Virus record (IMG/VR): IMGVR_UViG_2859788636_000006
Length of the DNA stretch: 23,303 bases
DNA from: a virus
Lineage: Duplodnaviria > Heunggongvirae > Uroviricota > Caudoviricetes
Strand: one strand, 5' to 3'
The translations under genes were made by a program, and so were the position numbers. The notes beneath the pieces were generated by a model. It worked only from the letters and a program-made list of their open reading frames with translations, did not search any database and was not told where the DNA came from. Below are positions 1 to 23,303 of this stretch, in pieces; the stretch's first letter is position 1; the number at the start of each line of letters is the position of its first letter.

Positions 1-504
1 TTATTGATAGTGTTTTATGTTCAGATAATGCCCGATGACTTTGTCATGCAGCTCCACCGATTTTGAGAACGACAGCGACTTCCGTCCCAGCCGTGCCAGG
101 TGCTGCCTCAGATTCAGGTTATGCCGCTCAATTCGCTGCGTATATCGCTTGCTGATTACGTGCAGCTTTCCCTTCAGGCGGGATTCATACAGCGGCCAGC
201 CATCCGTCATCCATATCACCACGTCAAAGGGTGACAGCAGGCTCATAAGACGCCCCAGCGTCGCCATCGTGCGTTCACCGAAGACGTGCGCAACAACCGT
301 CTTCCGGGGCCTGTCATACGCGTAAAACAGCCAGCGCTGGCGCGATTTAGCCCCGACATAGCCCCACTGTTCGTCCATTTCCGCGCAGACGATGACGTCA
401 CTGCCCGGCTGTATGCGCGAGGTTACCGACTGCGGCCTGAGTTTTTTAAGTGACGTAAAATCGTGTTGAGGCCAACGCCCATAATGCGGGCAGTTGCCCG
501 GCAT
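1..504 (-). CDS. insB: IS1 InsB reading frame (normally expressed as InsAB' transposase by -1 frameshift from insA)
   Basis: 167-aa ORF; translation matches the IS1 InsB sequence as recalled. Confidence 0.9.
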
Positions 505-3732: not shown

Positions 3733-4086
3733 TTATGCCTCGCTTGTTACAGTCGTCTGGCCGTAGATTGTGTCAATGGAGGAAGTGAAGGTGACGCGAC
3801 GGCTGGTGCCGTCATAATTGGTATCGAAGGAAAGAATCGACAGAACGCCCGGTGTATCCTGTATGCGTTCGCGTATAGCCAGGATGTAGACATCTGATCG
3901 CTGCTTCCCAAGCACTGACTGAACATACGGCGTGCCTTCCGTCAGATCGAGAAACCACTGACCGCGCCACAGCTCGAAACGGGTTTTTACGGCCTGGGCG
4001 ACACATTCCGGACTGTCGATAAGGAAAGTATCGTCACCCTGGCCGAAAGTGTAATCGCCTTCAGTATCTTCGCGACGGTATCGCAT
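3733..4086 (-). CDS. Small baseplate wedge protein (gp25/gpW-like or XkdS-like, putative)
   Basis: 117-aa ORF; start overlaps the spike stop (TAATG); position between spike and baseplate J as in Mu/P2/PBSX-type baseplate modules. Confidence 0.5.
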   Translation of the reverse strand: MRYRREDTEGDYTFGQGDDTFLIDSPECVAQAVKTRFELWRGQWFLDLTEGTPYVQSVLGKQRSDVYILAIRERIQDTPGVLSILSFDTNYDGTSRRVTFTSSIDTIYGQTTVTSEA

Positions 4087-4826
4087 TATTGCGGCCCTCC
4101 GGTAGTTCCCCCGCCAGTCTGTACTCCGCCATGTTTATGCGTGGCGACACTGATACCAGAAGCTGTTACGTCATTCGTTACCATCACCGGCCCAAGCATC
4201 GTCGCAGTACCGCCGCTTTCGCCCATTCCCTGAGACAAGTTGCCATTAATCGTTACGTTGCCGTTCAGCGTGATAGTCGGGGATGTGATTGTCGTTCCAC
4301 CTTCAGCCGTAGCTGTAAGCTGGCCCGGTGTTTTAATGGTGATGTTATGTCCTGCGGCGACTTCTACAAACGCCGCACCATCATCGGTTCGCAGCTGCGC
4401 GGCGCTGGTACTGATACCGCTGATTTTCCGTGCTTGCGACTGCGGGCCAACGATGGCGAACGCATCAGATAAGTCATGCTGGCGCGGGTCGACGGTCTCC
4501 TGAACGCCGCCGCTCTGCCACCAAAAATCGATGCAACGGTCAGCAAAAATCAGGAGGCACTCGTCGCCTTCTTTTACCGGAAAGGTCAGCGTGCAACCGC
4601 CGCCGCGCGGGAAGATGACCGGCACATCCACCAGCGGTTTTAATTCGGTGGATCCATCGCCAACAATACCGCGTAGCGCCACCTCTACTGTGCAGGTAAC
4701 AGTCTCAGGATCGAACGACTGAATGATGCCGGGCATCGCTACGCGCATCTGGGTAGACACCGAATCGGCAATGGCCTGCGCGGTCTGCTGCTCACCGCCG
4801 ATCTGTGATTGAGTTGGAATTGGCAT
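4086..4826 (-). CDS. Baseplate central spike protein (gpV / Gp138-N-like OB-fold with Gly-rich C-terminal region)
   Basis: 246-aa ORF; N-terminus MPIPTQSQ...MPGIIQSFD typical of spike N-domains; C-terminus Gly/Thr-rich; GGGGG Shine-Dalgarno 4 nt upstream. Confidence 0.6.
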   Translation of the reverse strand: MPIPTQSQIGGEQQTAQAIADSVSTQMRVAMPGIIQSFDPETVTCTVEVALRGIVGDGSTELKPLVDVPVIFPRGGGCTLTFPVKEGDECLLIFADRCIDFWWQSGGVQETVDPRQHDLSDAFAIVGPQSQARKISGISTSAAQLRTDDGAAFVEVAAGHNITIKTPGQLTATAEGGTTITSPTITLNGNVTINGNLSQGMGESGGTATMLGPVMVTNDVTASGISVATHKHGGVQTGGGTTGGPQ

Positions 4827-4834
4827 AAAACCCC

Positions 4835-4860
4835 CATAAAAAAACCAGCCGAAGCTGGTT
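4835..4860 (-). terminator. Intrinsic terminator on the minus strand (7-bp stem, UUCG tetraloop, 7-8 U tract), 17 nt upstream of the spike start codon
   Basis: Minus-strand RNA AACCAGC-UUCG-GCUGGUU followed by UUUUUUUAU; read directly from the sequence. Confidence 0.6.
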
Positions 4861-5048
4861 TGGTATCAATTATCTCTTAGTAACTAAGCTACATCAGTGT
4901 GAAGTAAGGCTTTTCCGCTGCAATGGCACACATTCACAAGGTGTATTAGGATATGTTTGCAACAAGTAAGCATTGAAAATCAATTTCAGCCATGAAGCCG
5001 CCATAGAGTGGACCTGCACCATCGCATTATTGACTACAGGAGTAACAA

Positions 5049-5339
5049 ATGGGATTTAGATTTCGTAAAAGAATCCGGATTGCGCCCGGACTCGCGATCA
5101 ACATTAGTAAAAGCGGAGTAAGCACTTCAATTGGTGGTAAAGGTTCCACCATTAACATCGGGAAAAAAGGCGTAAAGATGACAAATGGCCTTCCCGGCAC
5201 GGGGCTGTCGCATACCACTAACCTTTACTCTCCCGGGAAATCGACAGAAAAAAAACAACTTACTCATAAGCAAAAAATAATTAGAAACATCCTGTTCGTA
5301 ATTATTGTGTTTATAATAATTAAAGCTCAATATTTTTGA
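5049..5339 (+). CDS. Small C-terminally membrane-anchored protein with DUF4236-like N-terminal motif; insert cargo gene of unknown function
   Basis: 96-aa ORF; AGGAG Shine-Dalgarno 6 nt upstream of ATG; N-terminus MGFRFRKRIRIAPGLAINISKSGVSTSIGGKGSTINIGKKG matches the DUF4236 motif as recalled; C-terminal hydrophobic segment NILFVIIVFIIII; markedly AT-rich; opposite strand to all flanking phage genes; followed by a terminator. Confidence 0.7.
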   Translation: MGFRFRKRIRIAPGLAINISKSGVSTSIGGKGSTINIGKKGVKMTNGLPGTGLSHTTNLYSPGKSTEKKQLTHKQKIIRNILFVIIVFIIIKAQYF

Positions 5340-5344
5340 CGCAT

Positions 5345-5375
5345 GCCCGCCTATCTGGCGGGCTATTTTACTTTT
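5345..5375 (+). terminator. Intrinsic terminator for the plus-strand cargo gene (GC-rich hairpin plus U-rich tract), overlapping the 3' end of the convergent minus-strand gene
   Basis: GCCCGCC-tatct-GGCGGGC followed by TATTTTACTTTT on the plus strand, 5 nt after the stop at 5337-5339; on the minus strand the hairpin is followed by an A-rich tract, so termination is likely plus-strand only. Confidence 0.6.
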
Positions 5376-5707
5376 CGGCAGTCGTATGTTGCATACTGAC
5401 GCGGCGAATCCATGCTGGCTTGCAGCCACTGTGCGTTGAGAATGGCTTTGCCGTTTCGATTGATGTACTCAAGACCAACCCATCTTCCAGGCTGATCGGT
5501 AGCCATACGCCAATCCATCTTGATATTGTTATAATCGCCTTTGTTTTTCAGGAAGGTGATTTTTTGCATTTCTGGCTTTGCGCCATTGATTCTGGCTAAG
5601 CCATCATCTGCCCAATGGATTTTAAAATCACCACATTGCTGATCCGCAAAAGCGGGTGCTGATATAAGCACCGCGAACACGGTAACAGTGCAAAGTAAAT
5701 GTCTCAC
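5363..5707 (-). CDS. Secreted/periplasmic protein of unknown function (signal peptide, two Cys), embedded in the baseplate module
   Basis: 114-aa ORF with GTG start 12 nt after the hub stop, preceded by a GAGGTGG Shine-Dalgarno; N-terminus MRHLLCTVTVFAVLISAPAFA-DQQ is a canonical Sec signal peptide with AxA-type cleavage site; Cys near the mature N-terminus and near the C-terminus; GC lower than flanking structural genes. Confidence 0.65.
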   Translation of the reverse strand: MRHLLCTVTVFAVLISAPAFADQQCGDFKIHWADDGLARINGAKPEMQKITFLKNKGDYNNIKMDWRMATDQPGRWVGLEYINRNGKAILNAQWLQASMDSPRQYATYDCRKVK

Positions 5708-5719
5708 GGCCCCACCTCA

Positions 5720-6784
5720 CTAATTCGTCGTCCCTTGCATTGCTTTCGGGCTATAAAGATCACGAGCGCCACGCGCAAAACACATCAAATCCATGTACCA
5801 CGCCTGACCTCTGGTGTCGCCAGTATAGTCGATAGCTTTGACGATATAAACGCCATCCGTCGCAATGCTGGCAGCCTGTGACGTCGTGCCGGTCAGCACA
5901 CGGTTGCCGTTCTCTTCTGTTTCGGTGATACGCCCGGGCGACTGTGCTATTTCGCTATTGCCGAGCGTGGCGCGGTACACCGAAGCCTGATCGAGCTGGA
6001 TAAGACCATTAATACGGATGTTTGGGTTTATCAGGCATCGCACGTTTACTCCGCCACCCATCGTTTGTTGCGGCATACCGATCAGGCCAGTATTGGCATT
6101 CAACACAATGGCTTCGTGAATATATTTATCCTCCGGCACCATCTGGACCTGACCATCCACCAGTTGCCATGTCGCTTTGCACTGCGCAGCAATATTATCC
6201 ATCACGTTGCGGCTGGATGAGTAAATCGCGCGGCCACGAGGAAACACGGTATCAGGAAAATCGCCGGTAATGCCCTGTGTCACGCCGAACGCGTTGAAAT
6301 CCTGCATCGTCGCCCGGTGCAGATCCGCAACGGTATATCCAGCGGCAAGCGTGGTGATGGTGGTCGCATAGAGGAACGCTTCGTGATCACCAATGGCCTG
6401 AATCAACACCCAGGAATCCGTAATGTTGTCCTTCCCGGTGACGGTGAAGCGAATATCACCGTCAAAAATCAGGCCGTAGTTCTGACCGTTCACCTGCCCT
6501 ATCTGGTCTGGTGAAATCTCCCGGGACACACCAACCTGGCTCGCATCAACATCCGGCGCTATACCGTCATACCCGGCAATGATGCGAATTTTGGCAAACT
6601 CCTGCCCAAGTATCTTGTTCGTGGTATCGGTCGAAAGGTTGTAAATTTTCACGTTCGCCACGCGCGGCCAGCGTGTGTCTGCCCACTCGATCTGGAACGT
6701 GACCTTAAAGTCAGACAGGGAAACGCCCTGCCCGTTCTGGTCCAACAGTTGCAGCTCAAAATGGCGCATCCAGTTAAGAGACAT
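5720..6784 (-). CDS. Baseplate hub / tail assembly protein (gpD / XkdQ / Mu gp44-like, putative)
   Basis: 354-aa ORF in the position between tape-measure-proximal genes and the spike; assignment by synteny and size. Confidence 0.45.
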   Translation of the reverse strand: MSLNWMRHFELQLLDQNGQGVSLSDFKVTFQIEWADTRWPRVANVKIYNLSTDTTNKILGQEFAKIRIIAGYDGIAPDVDASQVGVSREISPDQIGQVNGQNYGLIFDGDIRFTVTGKDNITDSWVLIQAIGDHEAFLYATTITTLAAGYTVADLHRATMQDFNAFGVTQGITGDFPDTVFPRGRAIYSSSRNVMDNIAAQCKATWQLVDGQVQMVPEDKYIHEAIVLNANTGLIGMPQQTMGGGVNVRCLINPNIRINGLIQLDQASVYRATLGNSEIAQSPGRITETEENGNRVLTGTTSQAASIATDGVYIVKAIDYTGDTRGQAWYMDLMCFARGARDLYSPKAMQGTTN

Positions 6785-6786
6785 TT

Positions 6787-7092
6787 CTACTCCTGTACGA
6801 AAATGAGGTGGCTGTATGTGCCGAGGTTGGTTTTGGTGGGCTCGTCTGGTGCGCCCTTATCGGTCGCCACCACCAGCGCGCCATCAATGCCAAGCTGTGG
6901 ATATTGTCGTAAAAGGTTTACGCCGGTCAGTAGAGGTACGCCAGAGAGAAGCGCGGCACCGCCGCTATCCATCACGTCCATAATCCAGCCAGCCGCATCA
7001 CGCCAGATGATCCTGAGTGTATACGTGGTATTGCCCAGCAAAACTCGGAACTGCTGATTGTCAGGAGAAAGCGGTATTTCGTTAAACTGCAT
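6787..7092 (-). CDS. Small tail/baseplate protein, unknown family
   Basis: 101-aa ORF with ATG start, tightly packed between the 200-aa protein and the hub gene. Confidence 0.4.
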   Translation of the reverse strand: MQFNEIPLSPDNQQFRVLLGNTTYTLRIIWRDAAGWIMDVMDSGGAALLSGVPLLTGVNLLRQYPQLGIDGALVVATDKGAPDEPTKTNLGTYSHLIFVQE

Positions 7093-7093
7093 A

Positions 7094-7696
7094 TCATCCC
7101 CCGAATGCTGATGTAACGCTTCCGCCCAGCTGGCTCAGCAAGGATTCGTTTGGCGGTGTAGTGGATTTCATCCCGGAATTCTGCACCGCCGATGTGCTGA
7201 CGCCATCCTGCATATCTGATTTATCTGCAACGCTAACGCTCTGCGTCTGCGACATGATCACTTCACGCAGGGTAAGCGTGCAGTTCAGCACGTTCTCGCT
7301 GGTTTTATCCGTTGTCACCTCGATGGCTCGCACCAGCATATTGCTGTAAACCCGCTTTCCGGTCACTACATCGAACGGCACCCTAGAGGACTGGAGATCC
7401 AGTAGTTGCTGATAGGTCTCTTTCGGGCTAAGTCCGGCGCTGAGGCCGATTGACGATGTATCAATGAAGTCCAGCAACGAACCGCCACCTGCGAAGCCGC
7501 ATTCCATCGTGACTTCGCTGGGGCGCTTATACGCATGATCGGCGATGAAACCCGACGCGCTATTCGTTGTTGGCTTCTCCACCGGGTGCTCAGTAATTTC
7601 GAGCGCATCAGAATGCTTTTCAGAAACAACCACGCTGGGGATTAATATTCCAATTCGCCGGGATTGCTGGCGAAAAATTGCTGATAAAATATCCAT
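7094..7696 (-). CDS. Tail protein downstream of tape measure (putative baseplate assembly / XkdP-position protein)
   Basis: 200-aa ORF; ATG overlaps the tape-measure stop (TAATG); function by position only. Confidence 0.4.
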   Translation of the reverse strand: MDILSAIFRQQSRRIGILIPSVVVSEKHSDALEITEHPVEKPTTNSASGFIADHAYKRPSEVTMECGFAGGGSLLDFIDTSSIGLSAGLSPKETYQQLLDLQSSRVPFDVVTGKRVYSNMLVRAIEVTTDKTSENVLNCTLTLREVIMSQTQSVSVADKSDMQDGVSTSAVQNSGMKSTTPPNESLLSQLGGSVTSAFGG

Positions 7697-21297: not shown

Positions 21298-21366
21298 TGA
21301 AGTGGCACACTGAATTTGGCCACCTGAACAGAGGTGATATGCTCACCTCAGAACAACACAGGTGCT

Positions 21367-22538
<1,172 letters not shown>

Positions 22539-22547
22539 CCACTTCAA

Positions 22548-23303
22548 ATCCGAAGAAAATTGCCGGACAAACCGCTCGCTGACATATCAACGAAAGAGGT
22601 GGCAGCAATGCTAAACACCTACGTAGCAGAAGGTAAAGCGGCTTCCGCAAAATTAATCAGGTCAACCCTTGTTGACGTTTTTCGTGAGGCAATAGCCGAG
22701 GGGCATGTAGCAACGAATCCGGTAACAGCAACCCGCACAGCAAAGTCAGAAGTAAGGCGCTCAAGGCTGACAGCTAATGAGTATGTCGCGATTTACCATG
22801 CAGCCGAACCTCTCCCAATCTGGCTGAGGCTAGCAATGGATTTGGCTGTCGTTACAGGGCAGAGAGTCGGCGATTTGTGCAGAATGAAATGGTCAGACAT
22901 AAACGACAACCATCTTCACATTGAACAGAGCAAAACAGGGGCTAAGCTCGCCATTCCGCTGACGCTAACGATTGACGCGCTCAATATCTCATTGGCTGAT
23001 ACACTACAGAAATGCAGGGAGGCCAGCAGCAGTGAAACTATAATCGCATCAAAGCATCACGATCCGCTTTCCCCGAAAACAGTATCGAAGTATTTTACAA
23101 AGGCGAGAAATGCATCAGGACTCTCATTTGATGGAGACCCGCCAACATTCCATGAACTGCGTAGCCTGTCGGCGAGGCTATACCGTAATCAGATTGGCGA
23201 TAAGTTTGCTCAACGTCTTCTCGGACATAAATCAGATTCAATGGCGGCGCGGTATAGGGACAGCCGTGGACGGGAATGGGACAAAATTGAAATCGACAAA
23301 TGA
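22548..23303 (+). pseudogene. int: Lambda-like tyrosine integrase, 5'-truncated by the IS911-like element (catalytic domain only)
   Basis: Translation (IRRKLPDKPLADISTKEVAAMLNTYVAEGKAASAKLIRSTL...HELRSLSARLY...LLGHKSDSMAARYRDSRGREWDKIEIDK) closely parallels phage lambda Int from about residue 110 to the C-terminus; frame is open back to the IS end; the N-terminal arm-binding domain is absent. Confidence 0.9.

Follow-up and report, generated by a model that had tools for sequence, protein, structure and literature searches.

A gene for a predicted exported protein in an accessory slot between the baseplate hub and spike genes of enterobacterial myophages

The locus and the translation of gene X

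The window analysed here is a stretch of 23,303 nt from a tailed virus (IMG/VR record IMGVR_UViG_2859788636_000006), and the gene of interest, here called X, lies in its tail module between the genes for the baseplate hub and the central spike (Table 1). The tail-tip genes follow the order tape-measure protein with an SLT domain at residues ~480–671, Dit-like protein, plug of the Pam3 gp18 type, hub, X and gpV-like spike with an Apex motif, and after the spike come genes for a gp25-like protein, baseplate J, a DUF2612 protein and the fibre. Further on from the tail tip are genes for the sheath, tube, capsid, portal and terminase. This gene set is that of a simple contractile tail; the virus is a temperate myophage, a prophage of enteric bacteria. 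The gene upstream of X had been called a baseplate hub in the first-pass annotation, and this identification is supported by its match to phrog_196; its score against the Pfam family E217_GP41 is 26.6 bits, just below the cut-off of 27.

The ORF of X was found as first described, with the same coordinates, GTG start (5707–5705), Shine-Dalgarno sequence and 12-nt spacing, and only its strand had to be specified, which is the minus strand. It comprises 114 codons and ends with a TAG stop at 5365–5363. The spacer between the TAG of the hub gene and the GTG of X is exactly 12 nt long (TGAGGTGGGGCC). In E. coli TOK-001, which is 99.7% identical, PGAP annotation calls the X CDS with an identical start and gives it the product name 'hypothetical protein'. 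Many other alleles of X overlap the hub gene at a shared stop/start (TAATG, ATGA or TGATG junctions). The translational coupling proposed at the outset is borne out by the spacer of the window and these overlapping junctions: X is read off the same strand as the tail operon, in translational coupling with the hub gene. Judged by the junctions, coupling is a property of the family and is tighter in alleles that overlap. X is no chance ORF: it matches a PHROG along its full length, has over 100 homologues in synteny, shows a dN/dS of about 0.1 over residues 46–114 and is called by PGAP, and on these comparisons it is a genuine gene.

Table 1. Features at and around gene X, with their positions in the window.
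Feature	Coordinates	Strand	Remarks
Central spike gene	4086..4826	-	gpV-like N domain and Apex motif; downstream boundary of the slot
Intrinsic terminator	4842..4861	-	AAACCAGC-TTCG-GCTGGTTT + T7, tail-operon strand; 15 nt separate its end from the spike ATG
DUF4236 cargo gene, convergent	5049..5339	+	96 aa; Pfam E 2e-20; C-terminal hydrophobic helix; AGGAG Shine-Dalgarno
GC-rich hairpin	5345..5363	.	GCCCGCC-N5-GGCGGGC; abuts the X stop; T-run on + strand only
X CDS	5363..5707	-	Predicted secreted protein of 114 aa, phrog_3443; GTG start, TAG stop
Predicted mature domain of X	5366..5644	-	93 aa; predicted eight-stranded beta-barrel with Cys25 and Cys110
Subdivision of mature X			Residues 22–45, variable hairpin; residues 46–114, conserved scaffold
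Predicted signal peptide of X	5645..5707	-	Residues 1–21, predicted cleavage AFA/DQQ; from sequence features, with the same architecture in 73 unique homologues
Shine-Dalgarno of X	5713..5718	-	GAGGTG; in the 12-nt hub-X spacer, 5 nt before the GTG
Baseplate hub gene	5720..6784	-	354 aa; phrog_196 E 3e-82; directly upstream of X
Candidate sigma-70 promoter	5822..5850	-	TTTATA-17-TATACT in the hub 3' end, about 115 nt upstream of X; suggestive

The predicted X protein and its family

The X precursor reads MRHLLCTVTVFAVLISAPAFA up to the predicted cleavage site, continues as DQQCG and ends in YDCRKVK. In a heuristic check of features, its N-terminus has a positively charged n-region, a hydrophobic core (mean of 2.66 over a Kyte-Doolittle window of 10 residues) and an A-F-A site. 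There is no lipobox, as the cleavage region, SAPAFA-DQQC, does not fit the pattern [LVI][ASTVI][GAS]C and its Cys stands four residues past A-F-A. Among 73 unique family members, K or R occurs near the N-terminus in 66, a strongly hydrophobic 10-residue window in 70, and a small-x-small site just ahead of the first conserved Cys in every one. Column entropy peaks in the signal segment, at 2.3 bits compared with 0.7–0.9 for the C-terminal two thirds, and because the architecture is kept while the sequence varies, the N-terminus reads as a working signal peptide. The Sec signal peptide with cleavage after AFA that had been proposed at first is upheld by these features, which recur in 66–73 of the 73 homologues, and X is predicted to be an exported, periplasmic protein.

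Mature X has exactly two cysteines, C25 and C110, one near each end as the first-pass annotation had noted, and both are invariant across the family; the protein is probably disulfide-bonded. AlphaFold2, run on an alignment of 48 sequences, predicted an all-beta protein of eight strands with a pLDDT of about 90 over the mature part, and an N-terminal helix of low confidence. In the predicted model the first strand bears Cys25 and the last strand Cys110, making a disulfide that closes the barrel plausible. Structure prediction followed by a fold search had been suggested as a way to identify the protein, and it yielded an eight-stranded beta-barrel whose fold matches were generic avidin/calycin-like ones only; no baseplate protein was among the structural matches of X in the PDB searches.

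The profile of phrog_3443 matches X at E 6.9e-46 (155.7 bits), with residues 2–114 aligned to positions 2–114 of 115. At E <= 0.01 this was the only PHROG matched, and no lysis or exclusion family appeared. No significant match to X was found in scans of Pfam, NCBIfam and PADLOC, nor in PDB sequence searches with either the single sequence or the family profile; Pfam gave none even at E 10, and PADLOC-DB gave only a chance-level match, to Cas11a, at E 0.045. Searched for exhaustively by profile among 1.8 billion representatives, the family formed 56 clusters at 50% identity, and at 90% identity it forms 86 clusters, all from Enterobacterales. By these counts it is a narrow family. Phrog_3443, of which X is a member, carries no assigned function.

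Several specific relationships were considered. A faint resemblance to YebF (PF13995) and the colicin-M-immunity proteins (Cmi), mentioned at first, was not upheld, with an hhalign probability of 0.6% against YebF and no Pfam match at E 10. Of the features pointed out along with it, the C-terminal DC stands as part of a Y-D-C that is conserved in the family, but WADD is part of the variable N-terminal hairpin and no motif of the family. The sequence match to avidin (PF01382) was regarded as not significant. The phmmer match (E 0.0098) was to a tandem dual-chain avidin only and rests on one hairpin (YINRNGKAILNAQWL), while the family profile brought no gain (E 0.7–0.8 for single-domain avidins), and the match is put down to chance or convergence; in addition, Pfam gave no avidin match and Trp93 is not invariant in the X family. 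The lysozyme inhibitors MliC/PliC (PF09864) provided neither a family HMM match nor a close fold match, and no sequence or confident fold relation was found between X and any of Spackle, Ivy, MliC/PliC or PliG. E217 gp42, which occupies the equivalent hub-spike slot, is without a signal peptide and has no evident resemblance to X. A literature search on the X family, DUF4236 and the S. Typhi locus tags found nothing relevant.

Selection on X differs along the protein. Pairwise dN/dS is about 0.1 for residues 46–114, 0.2–0.7 for residues 22–45 and about 0.6 for the signal peptide, and synonymous divergence between X alleles is near saturation. On these values the barrel is under purifying selection, and positive selection on X was not detected, pairwise dN/dS never exceeding 1.

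An accessory slot between hub and spike

Altogether, 107 related loci were gathered from phage records, species-representative genomes and IMG/VR, and in essentially all of them X directly follows the hub gene and precedes the spike gene. The position is the same in Mulock, YP3, SEN34 and GZ7, whose X proteins are only 33–39% identical. Among complete E. coli genomes, 64 of 5,426 carry the family, which also occurs in many prophages of Citrobacter, Salmonella, Enterobacter, Klebsiella, Serratia and Yersinia. In Providencia phage PSTCR3 there is nothing between the two flanking genes, which overlap (hub end at 3951, spike start at 3948). X is also missing from Hafnia phage yong1 and Elizabethkingia phage EKP1, whose hubs are 64% and 52% identical, respectively, and whose slots hold unrelated genes. 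X is not part of the tail module, because these three phages share the module without it. Judged by this distribution, X is an accessory insertion that is dispensable for the tail module and no part of the virion, in agreement with the earlier remark that such a protein would be atypical as a virion component. The GC content is 39–47% across 4800–5700 (the slot spanning 4827–5707), against 52–60% in the hub and spike flanks. X thus has the marks of a moron: it stands between genes that are adjacent in relatives, its GC content deviates, and an intrinsic terminator lies downstream.

Two hairpins lie downstream of X. The one that abuts its stop codon is the terminator of the DUF4236 gene, because its T-run sits on the plus strand only. 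The other, a strong intrinsic terminator on the tail-operon strand, has an equivalent before the spike gene in 98 of 100 loci, whatever the cargo, with stems that differ by compensatory changes, and it is absent from PSTCR3, which has no cargo. From this pattern, a conserved terminator closes the accessory slot ahead of the spike gene. Late transcription must read through it (4842–4861), since there is no room for a promoter between terminator and spike, and it would stop non-antiterminated transcripts begun upstream. The arrangement is classical for morons and hints that X may be expressed in lysogens. The only candidate promoter for X is the one within the 3' end of the hub gene. A scan for promoter consensus sequences gave no more matches than shuffled sequence. 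The codons forming the hexamers of the candidate are synonymously invariant in 68 unique sequences (TAT 68/68, ACT 68/68), and five other Thr codons nearby use 3–4 codons each; this invariance is suggestive, and recombinational homogenisation could also explain it. No RNA family turned up when the window was scanned with Rfam.

X and its cargo can be replaced separately. When two of the loci (L052 and L060) were compared with the window by sliding window, the differences were confined to X and the final ~80 nt of the hub gene (36–86% identity), and all else, the DUF4236 cassette included, was 98–100% identical. In a third locus (L033) X is identical to that of the window and the downstream cargo has been replaced. 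From these joints, therefore, X and the cargo are two independently exchangeable modules. The tape-measure, plug, spike and fibre genes likewise occur as discrete alleles, so that, on present comparisons, the phage group is mosaic throughout and allele swapping is not special to X. Several X alleles coexist in E. coli, and single alleles are common to E. coli, Citrobacter and Enterobacter. No co-variation was found between X alleles and those of the tape-measure, plug, spike, wedge or fibre genes. The sole co-variation of X alleles is with the ~15 residues at the C-terminus of the hub, ~80 nt away, the last ~15–20 hub codons varying together with the X allele. Linkage suffices to explain this, because the same mature hairpin type (CGDFKIHWADDG) is found with several hub tails.

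Variants of the family add to this picture. Serratia-type prophages carry in the same slot a protein of 284–299 aa with a canonical lipobox (LSGC or VSGC), in which the X barrel is C-terminal and the N-terminal domain is helical and bears a conserved Cys pair of its own. These fused variants are the only family members with a lipobox, and they provide strong support for an envelope location of X. Tandem arrays of X occur in two of 103 loci. That of Serratia aquatilis (L025) has eight profile matches between hub and spike, two of which represent one frameshifted copy, and an IS element lies inside the array; its copies are nearly identical in the C-terminal scaffold, the differences lying in the signal peptide and first hairpin. 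In Pseudescherichia vulneris (L020) X is present four times, with a remnant of the hub 3' end before each of copies 2, 3 and 4. Judged by these remnants and repeats, the arrays show that alleles are acquired by recombination in a conserved hub motif, and they suggest that carrying several variants of X can be useful. In a marine phage relative, X lies between the plug and hub genes. Distant homologues are found without phage context as chromosomal singletons in Erwinia and Pantoea, and of the non-phage homologues one lies beside an orphan Hcp gene and another on a Rep3 plasmid.

The family already had a PHROG entry with no function attached, and all sources call its members hypothetical. The present study adds the evidence for an accessory envelope protein, the behaviour of X as an allelic cassette, the lipoprotein fusions, the arrays, and the hub-spike slot with its conserved terminator.

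Possible functions of X

The most probable role of X is a change to the host envelope, perhaps one that shuts out other phages. The model tentatively preferred here, as a serious possibility short of an expectation, is that X is a moron-type periplasmic factor of a temperate myophage, acting broadly in superinfection exclusion. As a moron-type accessory gene it would occupy the insertion slot between hub and spike, and its product would be exported, oxidised by DsbA and retained in the periplasm; the lipoprotein-fused variants would sit on a membrane, facing the periplasm. The variable N-terminal hairpin could then bind a component of the envelope or of an incoming phage, the likely outcome being that entry of superinfecting phages is blocked and that the lysogen and late-infected cells are protected. 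The slot would also be transcribed outside the antiterminated late programme, i.e., in the lysogen, as is suggested by the terminator standing before the spike gene.

There are precedents for parts of this model. Periplasmic exclusion proteins are known from T4 (Spackle) and P1 (Sim), lipoproteins encoded beside tail genes from T5 (Llp) and from phi80 and N15 (Cor), and HK97 gp15 is an exclusion moron within a tail operon. Like the morons of lambdoid phages (HK97 gp15; lambda bor and lom), X is inserted between genes that are adjacent in relatives, has a deviant GC content, a flanking terminator and a product that would be directed to the envelope. It differs from them in having no free-standing promoter, as a promoter could lie only inside the hub gene, and in being a long-term resident of its slot with many alleles and not a sporadic insertion. 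With T5 Llp and Cor of phi80, N15 and T1 it shares small size, cysteines, a presumed place in the envelope and a gene beside those for tail or receptor-binding proteins, and lipoprotein-fused members exist in the X family; however, the X of the window is without a lipobox, has no homology to them and does not co-vary with the fibre gene.

Several observations count against exclusion. Tight coupling to a late structural gene is unusual for a factor needed in lysogens, the family is linked to exclusion neither by homology nor by a PADLOC match, and the lack of allelic co-variation with tape-measure, spike or fibre gives no pointer to a target. The chromosomal singletons of Erwinia and Pantoea, furthermore, show that the fold can serve a purely bacterial periplasmic role. 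Also to be weighed against the model are the lack of any pairwise dN/dS above 1, the mosaicism of every gene in the group, the rarity of arrays, one of which has a frameshifted copy and an IS element, and the nature of the internal promoter, a consensus match with synonymous invariance that could stem from homogenisation by recombination.

A more specific form of the exclusion model would make X the founder of a polymorphic, cassette-like 'envelope immunity' family, in which the hairpin recognises a matching variable part of the incoming tail tip, possibly the co-inherited C-terminal tail of the hub, and protection is widened by swapping alleles or by building arrays of hub 3' remnant plus X. 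It must be regarded as a long shot.

Exclusion need not be involved at all. X could be a small calycin/avidin-like periplasmic binder of bacterial origin, with a small molecule or an envelope component as ligand, that serves lysogenic conversion or host fitness by conferring stress tolerance or protection from toxins acting in the periplasm. The avidin match did not gain from the family profile (E ~0.7 for single-domain avidins), Trp93 is not invariant, and the overwhelming majority of the family, the marine relative included, lies in the baseplate cluster of one tail type, which is difficult to reconcile with a function independent of phages. This explanation seems rather unlikely.

The first-pass annotation had raised inhibition of cell-wall hydrolysis in the manner of T4 Spackle (Sp, gene 61.3). 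Periplasmic X would then inhibit the SLT lytic-transglycosylase domain of the tape-measure protein of incoming phages of the same family, and so block peptidoglycan penetration or lysis from without. The likeness lies in a small phage protein exported by Sec to the periplasm, this status being predicted for X, in a phage whose own tail bears a peptidoglycan hydrolase, and in the proposed role, a block of superinfecting phage at the cell-wall step, which would be the same idea. Spackle is alpha-helical, is the product of an early gene and has the gp5 lysozyme as its target, whereas X is predicted to be all-beta and is coupled to a late gene, the tail enzyme of its phage is an SLT transglycosylase, and the two proteins have no sequence similarity. 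Neither does X have a confident fold relation to Spackle or to the inhibitors named above; yong1 and EKP1 have SLT tape-measure proteins yet lack X, the alleles of X reassort freely against those of the tape-measure gene, and nothing in a conserved catalytic domain obviously corresponds to the variability of the hairpin. This mode of action is accordingly considered improbable.

About as improbable is that X, made along with the tail proteins, binds an outer-membrane protein or other envelope component from the periplasmic side late in infection, sparing progeny from loss on debris or infected cells, as T5 Llp keeps progeny from being wasted. Such masking would fit the coupling of X to a late gene, which in many alleles takes the form of a stop/start overlap, as well as the lipoprotein-fused variants, whose Thr or Ala at +2 suits an outer-membrane location, and the coexistence of several X alleles within one host species. 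On the other hand, X alleles do not co-vary with the tail-fibre allele, soluble X is not anchored in a membrane, there is no known receptor for these phages, and the conserved terminator points to expression beyond the late programme too.

That X assists tail assembly or is a minor virion component, in either case linked to the hub, with its hydrophobic N-terminus serving as a membrane tether or left uncleaved, is very unlikely indeed: it would account for the strict linkage and translational coupling to the hub in ~100 loci, for an association with hub and plug that persists in the distant marine phage, and for the co-variation of the hub C-terminal tail with the X allele, but this last is a matter of ~80-nt linkage, since one hairpin type occurs with several hub tails, and phages with the same module lack X, its GC content is foreign, the A-x-A site is conserved, the Cys pairs are invariant, lipobox variants exist, and the PDB searches gave no structural match to a baseplate protein.

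Only a few phage-encoded envelope proteins with the ability to block other phages are known, most of them not related to each other, and each has revealed an entry step. As a candidate for exclusion, X would be easily testable, being small, easily expressed and available as a natural allelic series that includes arrays and lipoprotein fusions; should it have no phage-related effect, it would be merely another uncharacterised moron product. The slot between hub and spike, closed by a conserved terminator, also forms a clearly delimited hotspot for accessory and defence-type cargo and could be mined systematically. The cargo next to X is, from the loci compared, hypervariable. DUF4236 genes occupy the slot in 17 loci, and other cargo includes Phd-Doc toxin-antitoxin pairs, two families of small secreted proteins, membrane proteins and a weak, EACC1-like match that is under the Pfam cut-off. 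One further cargo protein, without a Pfam match, is presumably HEPN-like, as judged by eye from its sequence, and another, judged in the same way, we take to be antirepressor-like.

The cargo interval upstream of the spike gene

The interval between X, the gene for a predicted Sec-exported beta-barrel protein that follows the baseplate hub gene, and the spike gene is a hypervariable cargo hotspot, which ranges from 62 to 1714 bp in loci L002-L107. The cargo it carries includes Phd-Doc toxin-antitoxin pairs, small secreted proteins of two families, multi-pass membrane proteins, a putative HEPN-like protein, a putative antirepressor-like protein and a weak EACC1-like match. In the window the occupant is a DUF4236 cassette, found at 96-100% identity in 15 other loci and, as a diverged copy (51%), at the equivalent position in Klebsiella phage GZ7. 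X and this cassette move independently of each other.

At the spike end of the hotspot, 98 of 100 related loci (L012-L107) carry a strong intrinsic terminator 12-20 nt upstream of the spike ATG, with stems that show compensatory changes from locus to locus. It is absent from the cargo-free Providencia phage PSTCR3. With such a terminator directly before a tail gene in nearly all of these loci, late tail transcription must, by implication, be antiterminated.

Features of the window and of related loci (L-numbers)
Feature	Location	Strand	Remarks
Hypervariable cargo hotspot	window 4827-5362		X-spike interval; counterparts in L002-L107
Intrinsic terminator, strong	window 4842-4861	-	just upstream of spike start
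DUF4236 gene, 96 aa	window 5049-5339	+	convergent to X; own Shine-Dalgarno; C-terminal hydrophobic helix
Terminator of DUF4236 gene	window 5345-5363		
Transposase (phrog_720)	window 1-504	-	mobile-element gene, one window end
Two-ORF transposase (phrog_157) and integrase-like ORF	window 21334-22538, 22560-23303	+, +	mobile-element genes, other window end
Mosaic patch	window ~6850-7150		
Tandem X paralogue array	L025 5394-10282		Serratia aquatilis; hub-spike interval
Tandem X paralogue array	L020 629-2849		Pseudescherichia vulneris; hub-spike interval
Lipoprotein-fused X	L013 8001-8879; also L014, L015, L026		in X's slot
X with 1-nt deletion	L049 10001-10341		IMG/VR contig
E217 gp42	L119 7595-8128		Pseudomonas phage; between hub gp41 and tip gp43
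Distant X homologue with signal peptide	L112/L113 371-709		marine metagenome
Non-phage X homologues	L109 5001-5342; L114-L118		Erwinia typographi (L109); Erwinia, Pantoea

Variants and relatives of X

X itself occurs in several forms. The Serratia array holds eight profile matches to X, two of which make up a single frameshifted copy, together with an IS256-type transposase. The Pseudescherichia array has four copies, and a leftover piece of the hub 3' end, present as a duplicate, precedes each of copies 2-4. In the lipoprotein fusions a lipobox is followed by a helical domain of about 175 aa, restricted to these fusions, and then by the X barrel. Every tail protein of contig L049 that was compared matches its window counterpart at 100% identity, but the 1-nt deletion close to the 5' end of its X destroys the signal peptide; either gene decay to a pseudogene or an error in sequencing could account for this.

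More distantly, the marine homologue is flanked by the plug gene and by a gene for a shorter, 315-aa protein occupying the hub position, in a phage whose baseplate genes follow the same order. The non-phage homologues are chromosomal singletons; the example from Pantoea vagans sits after fliE, and one homologue lies in an island whose other genes include one for a lipoprotein and an orphan T6SS Hcp gene. Pseudomonas phage E217, too, carries a gene between its hub and tip genes; the product, gp42, lacks a signal peptide and bears no evident resemblance to X. The text of the E217 cryo-EM paper makes no mention of gp42.

Window ends and a second mosaic patch

Mobile-element genes lie at both ends of the window, and past the terminase genes it is possible that the prophage is interrupted or cut short. 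A second sharp mosaic patch covers the plug gene and reaches into the end of the Dit-like gene; here DNA identity falls to 52-74% and plug protein identity is only 77-79% in many loci that are otherwise near-identical.
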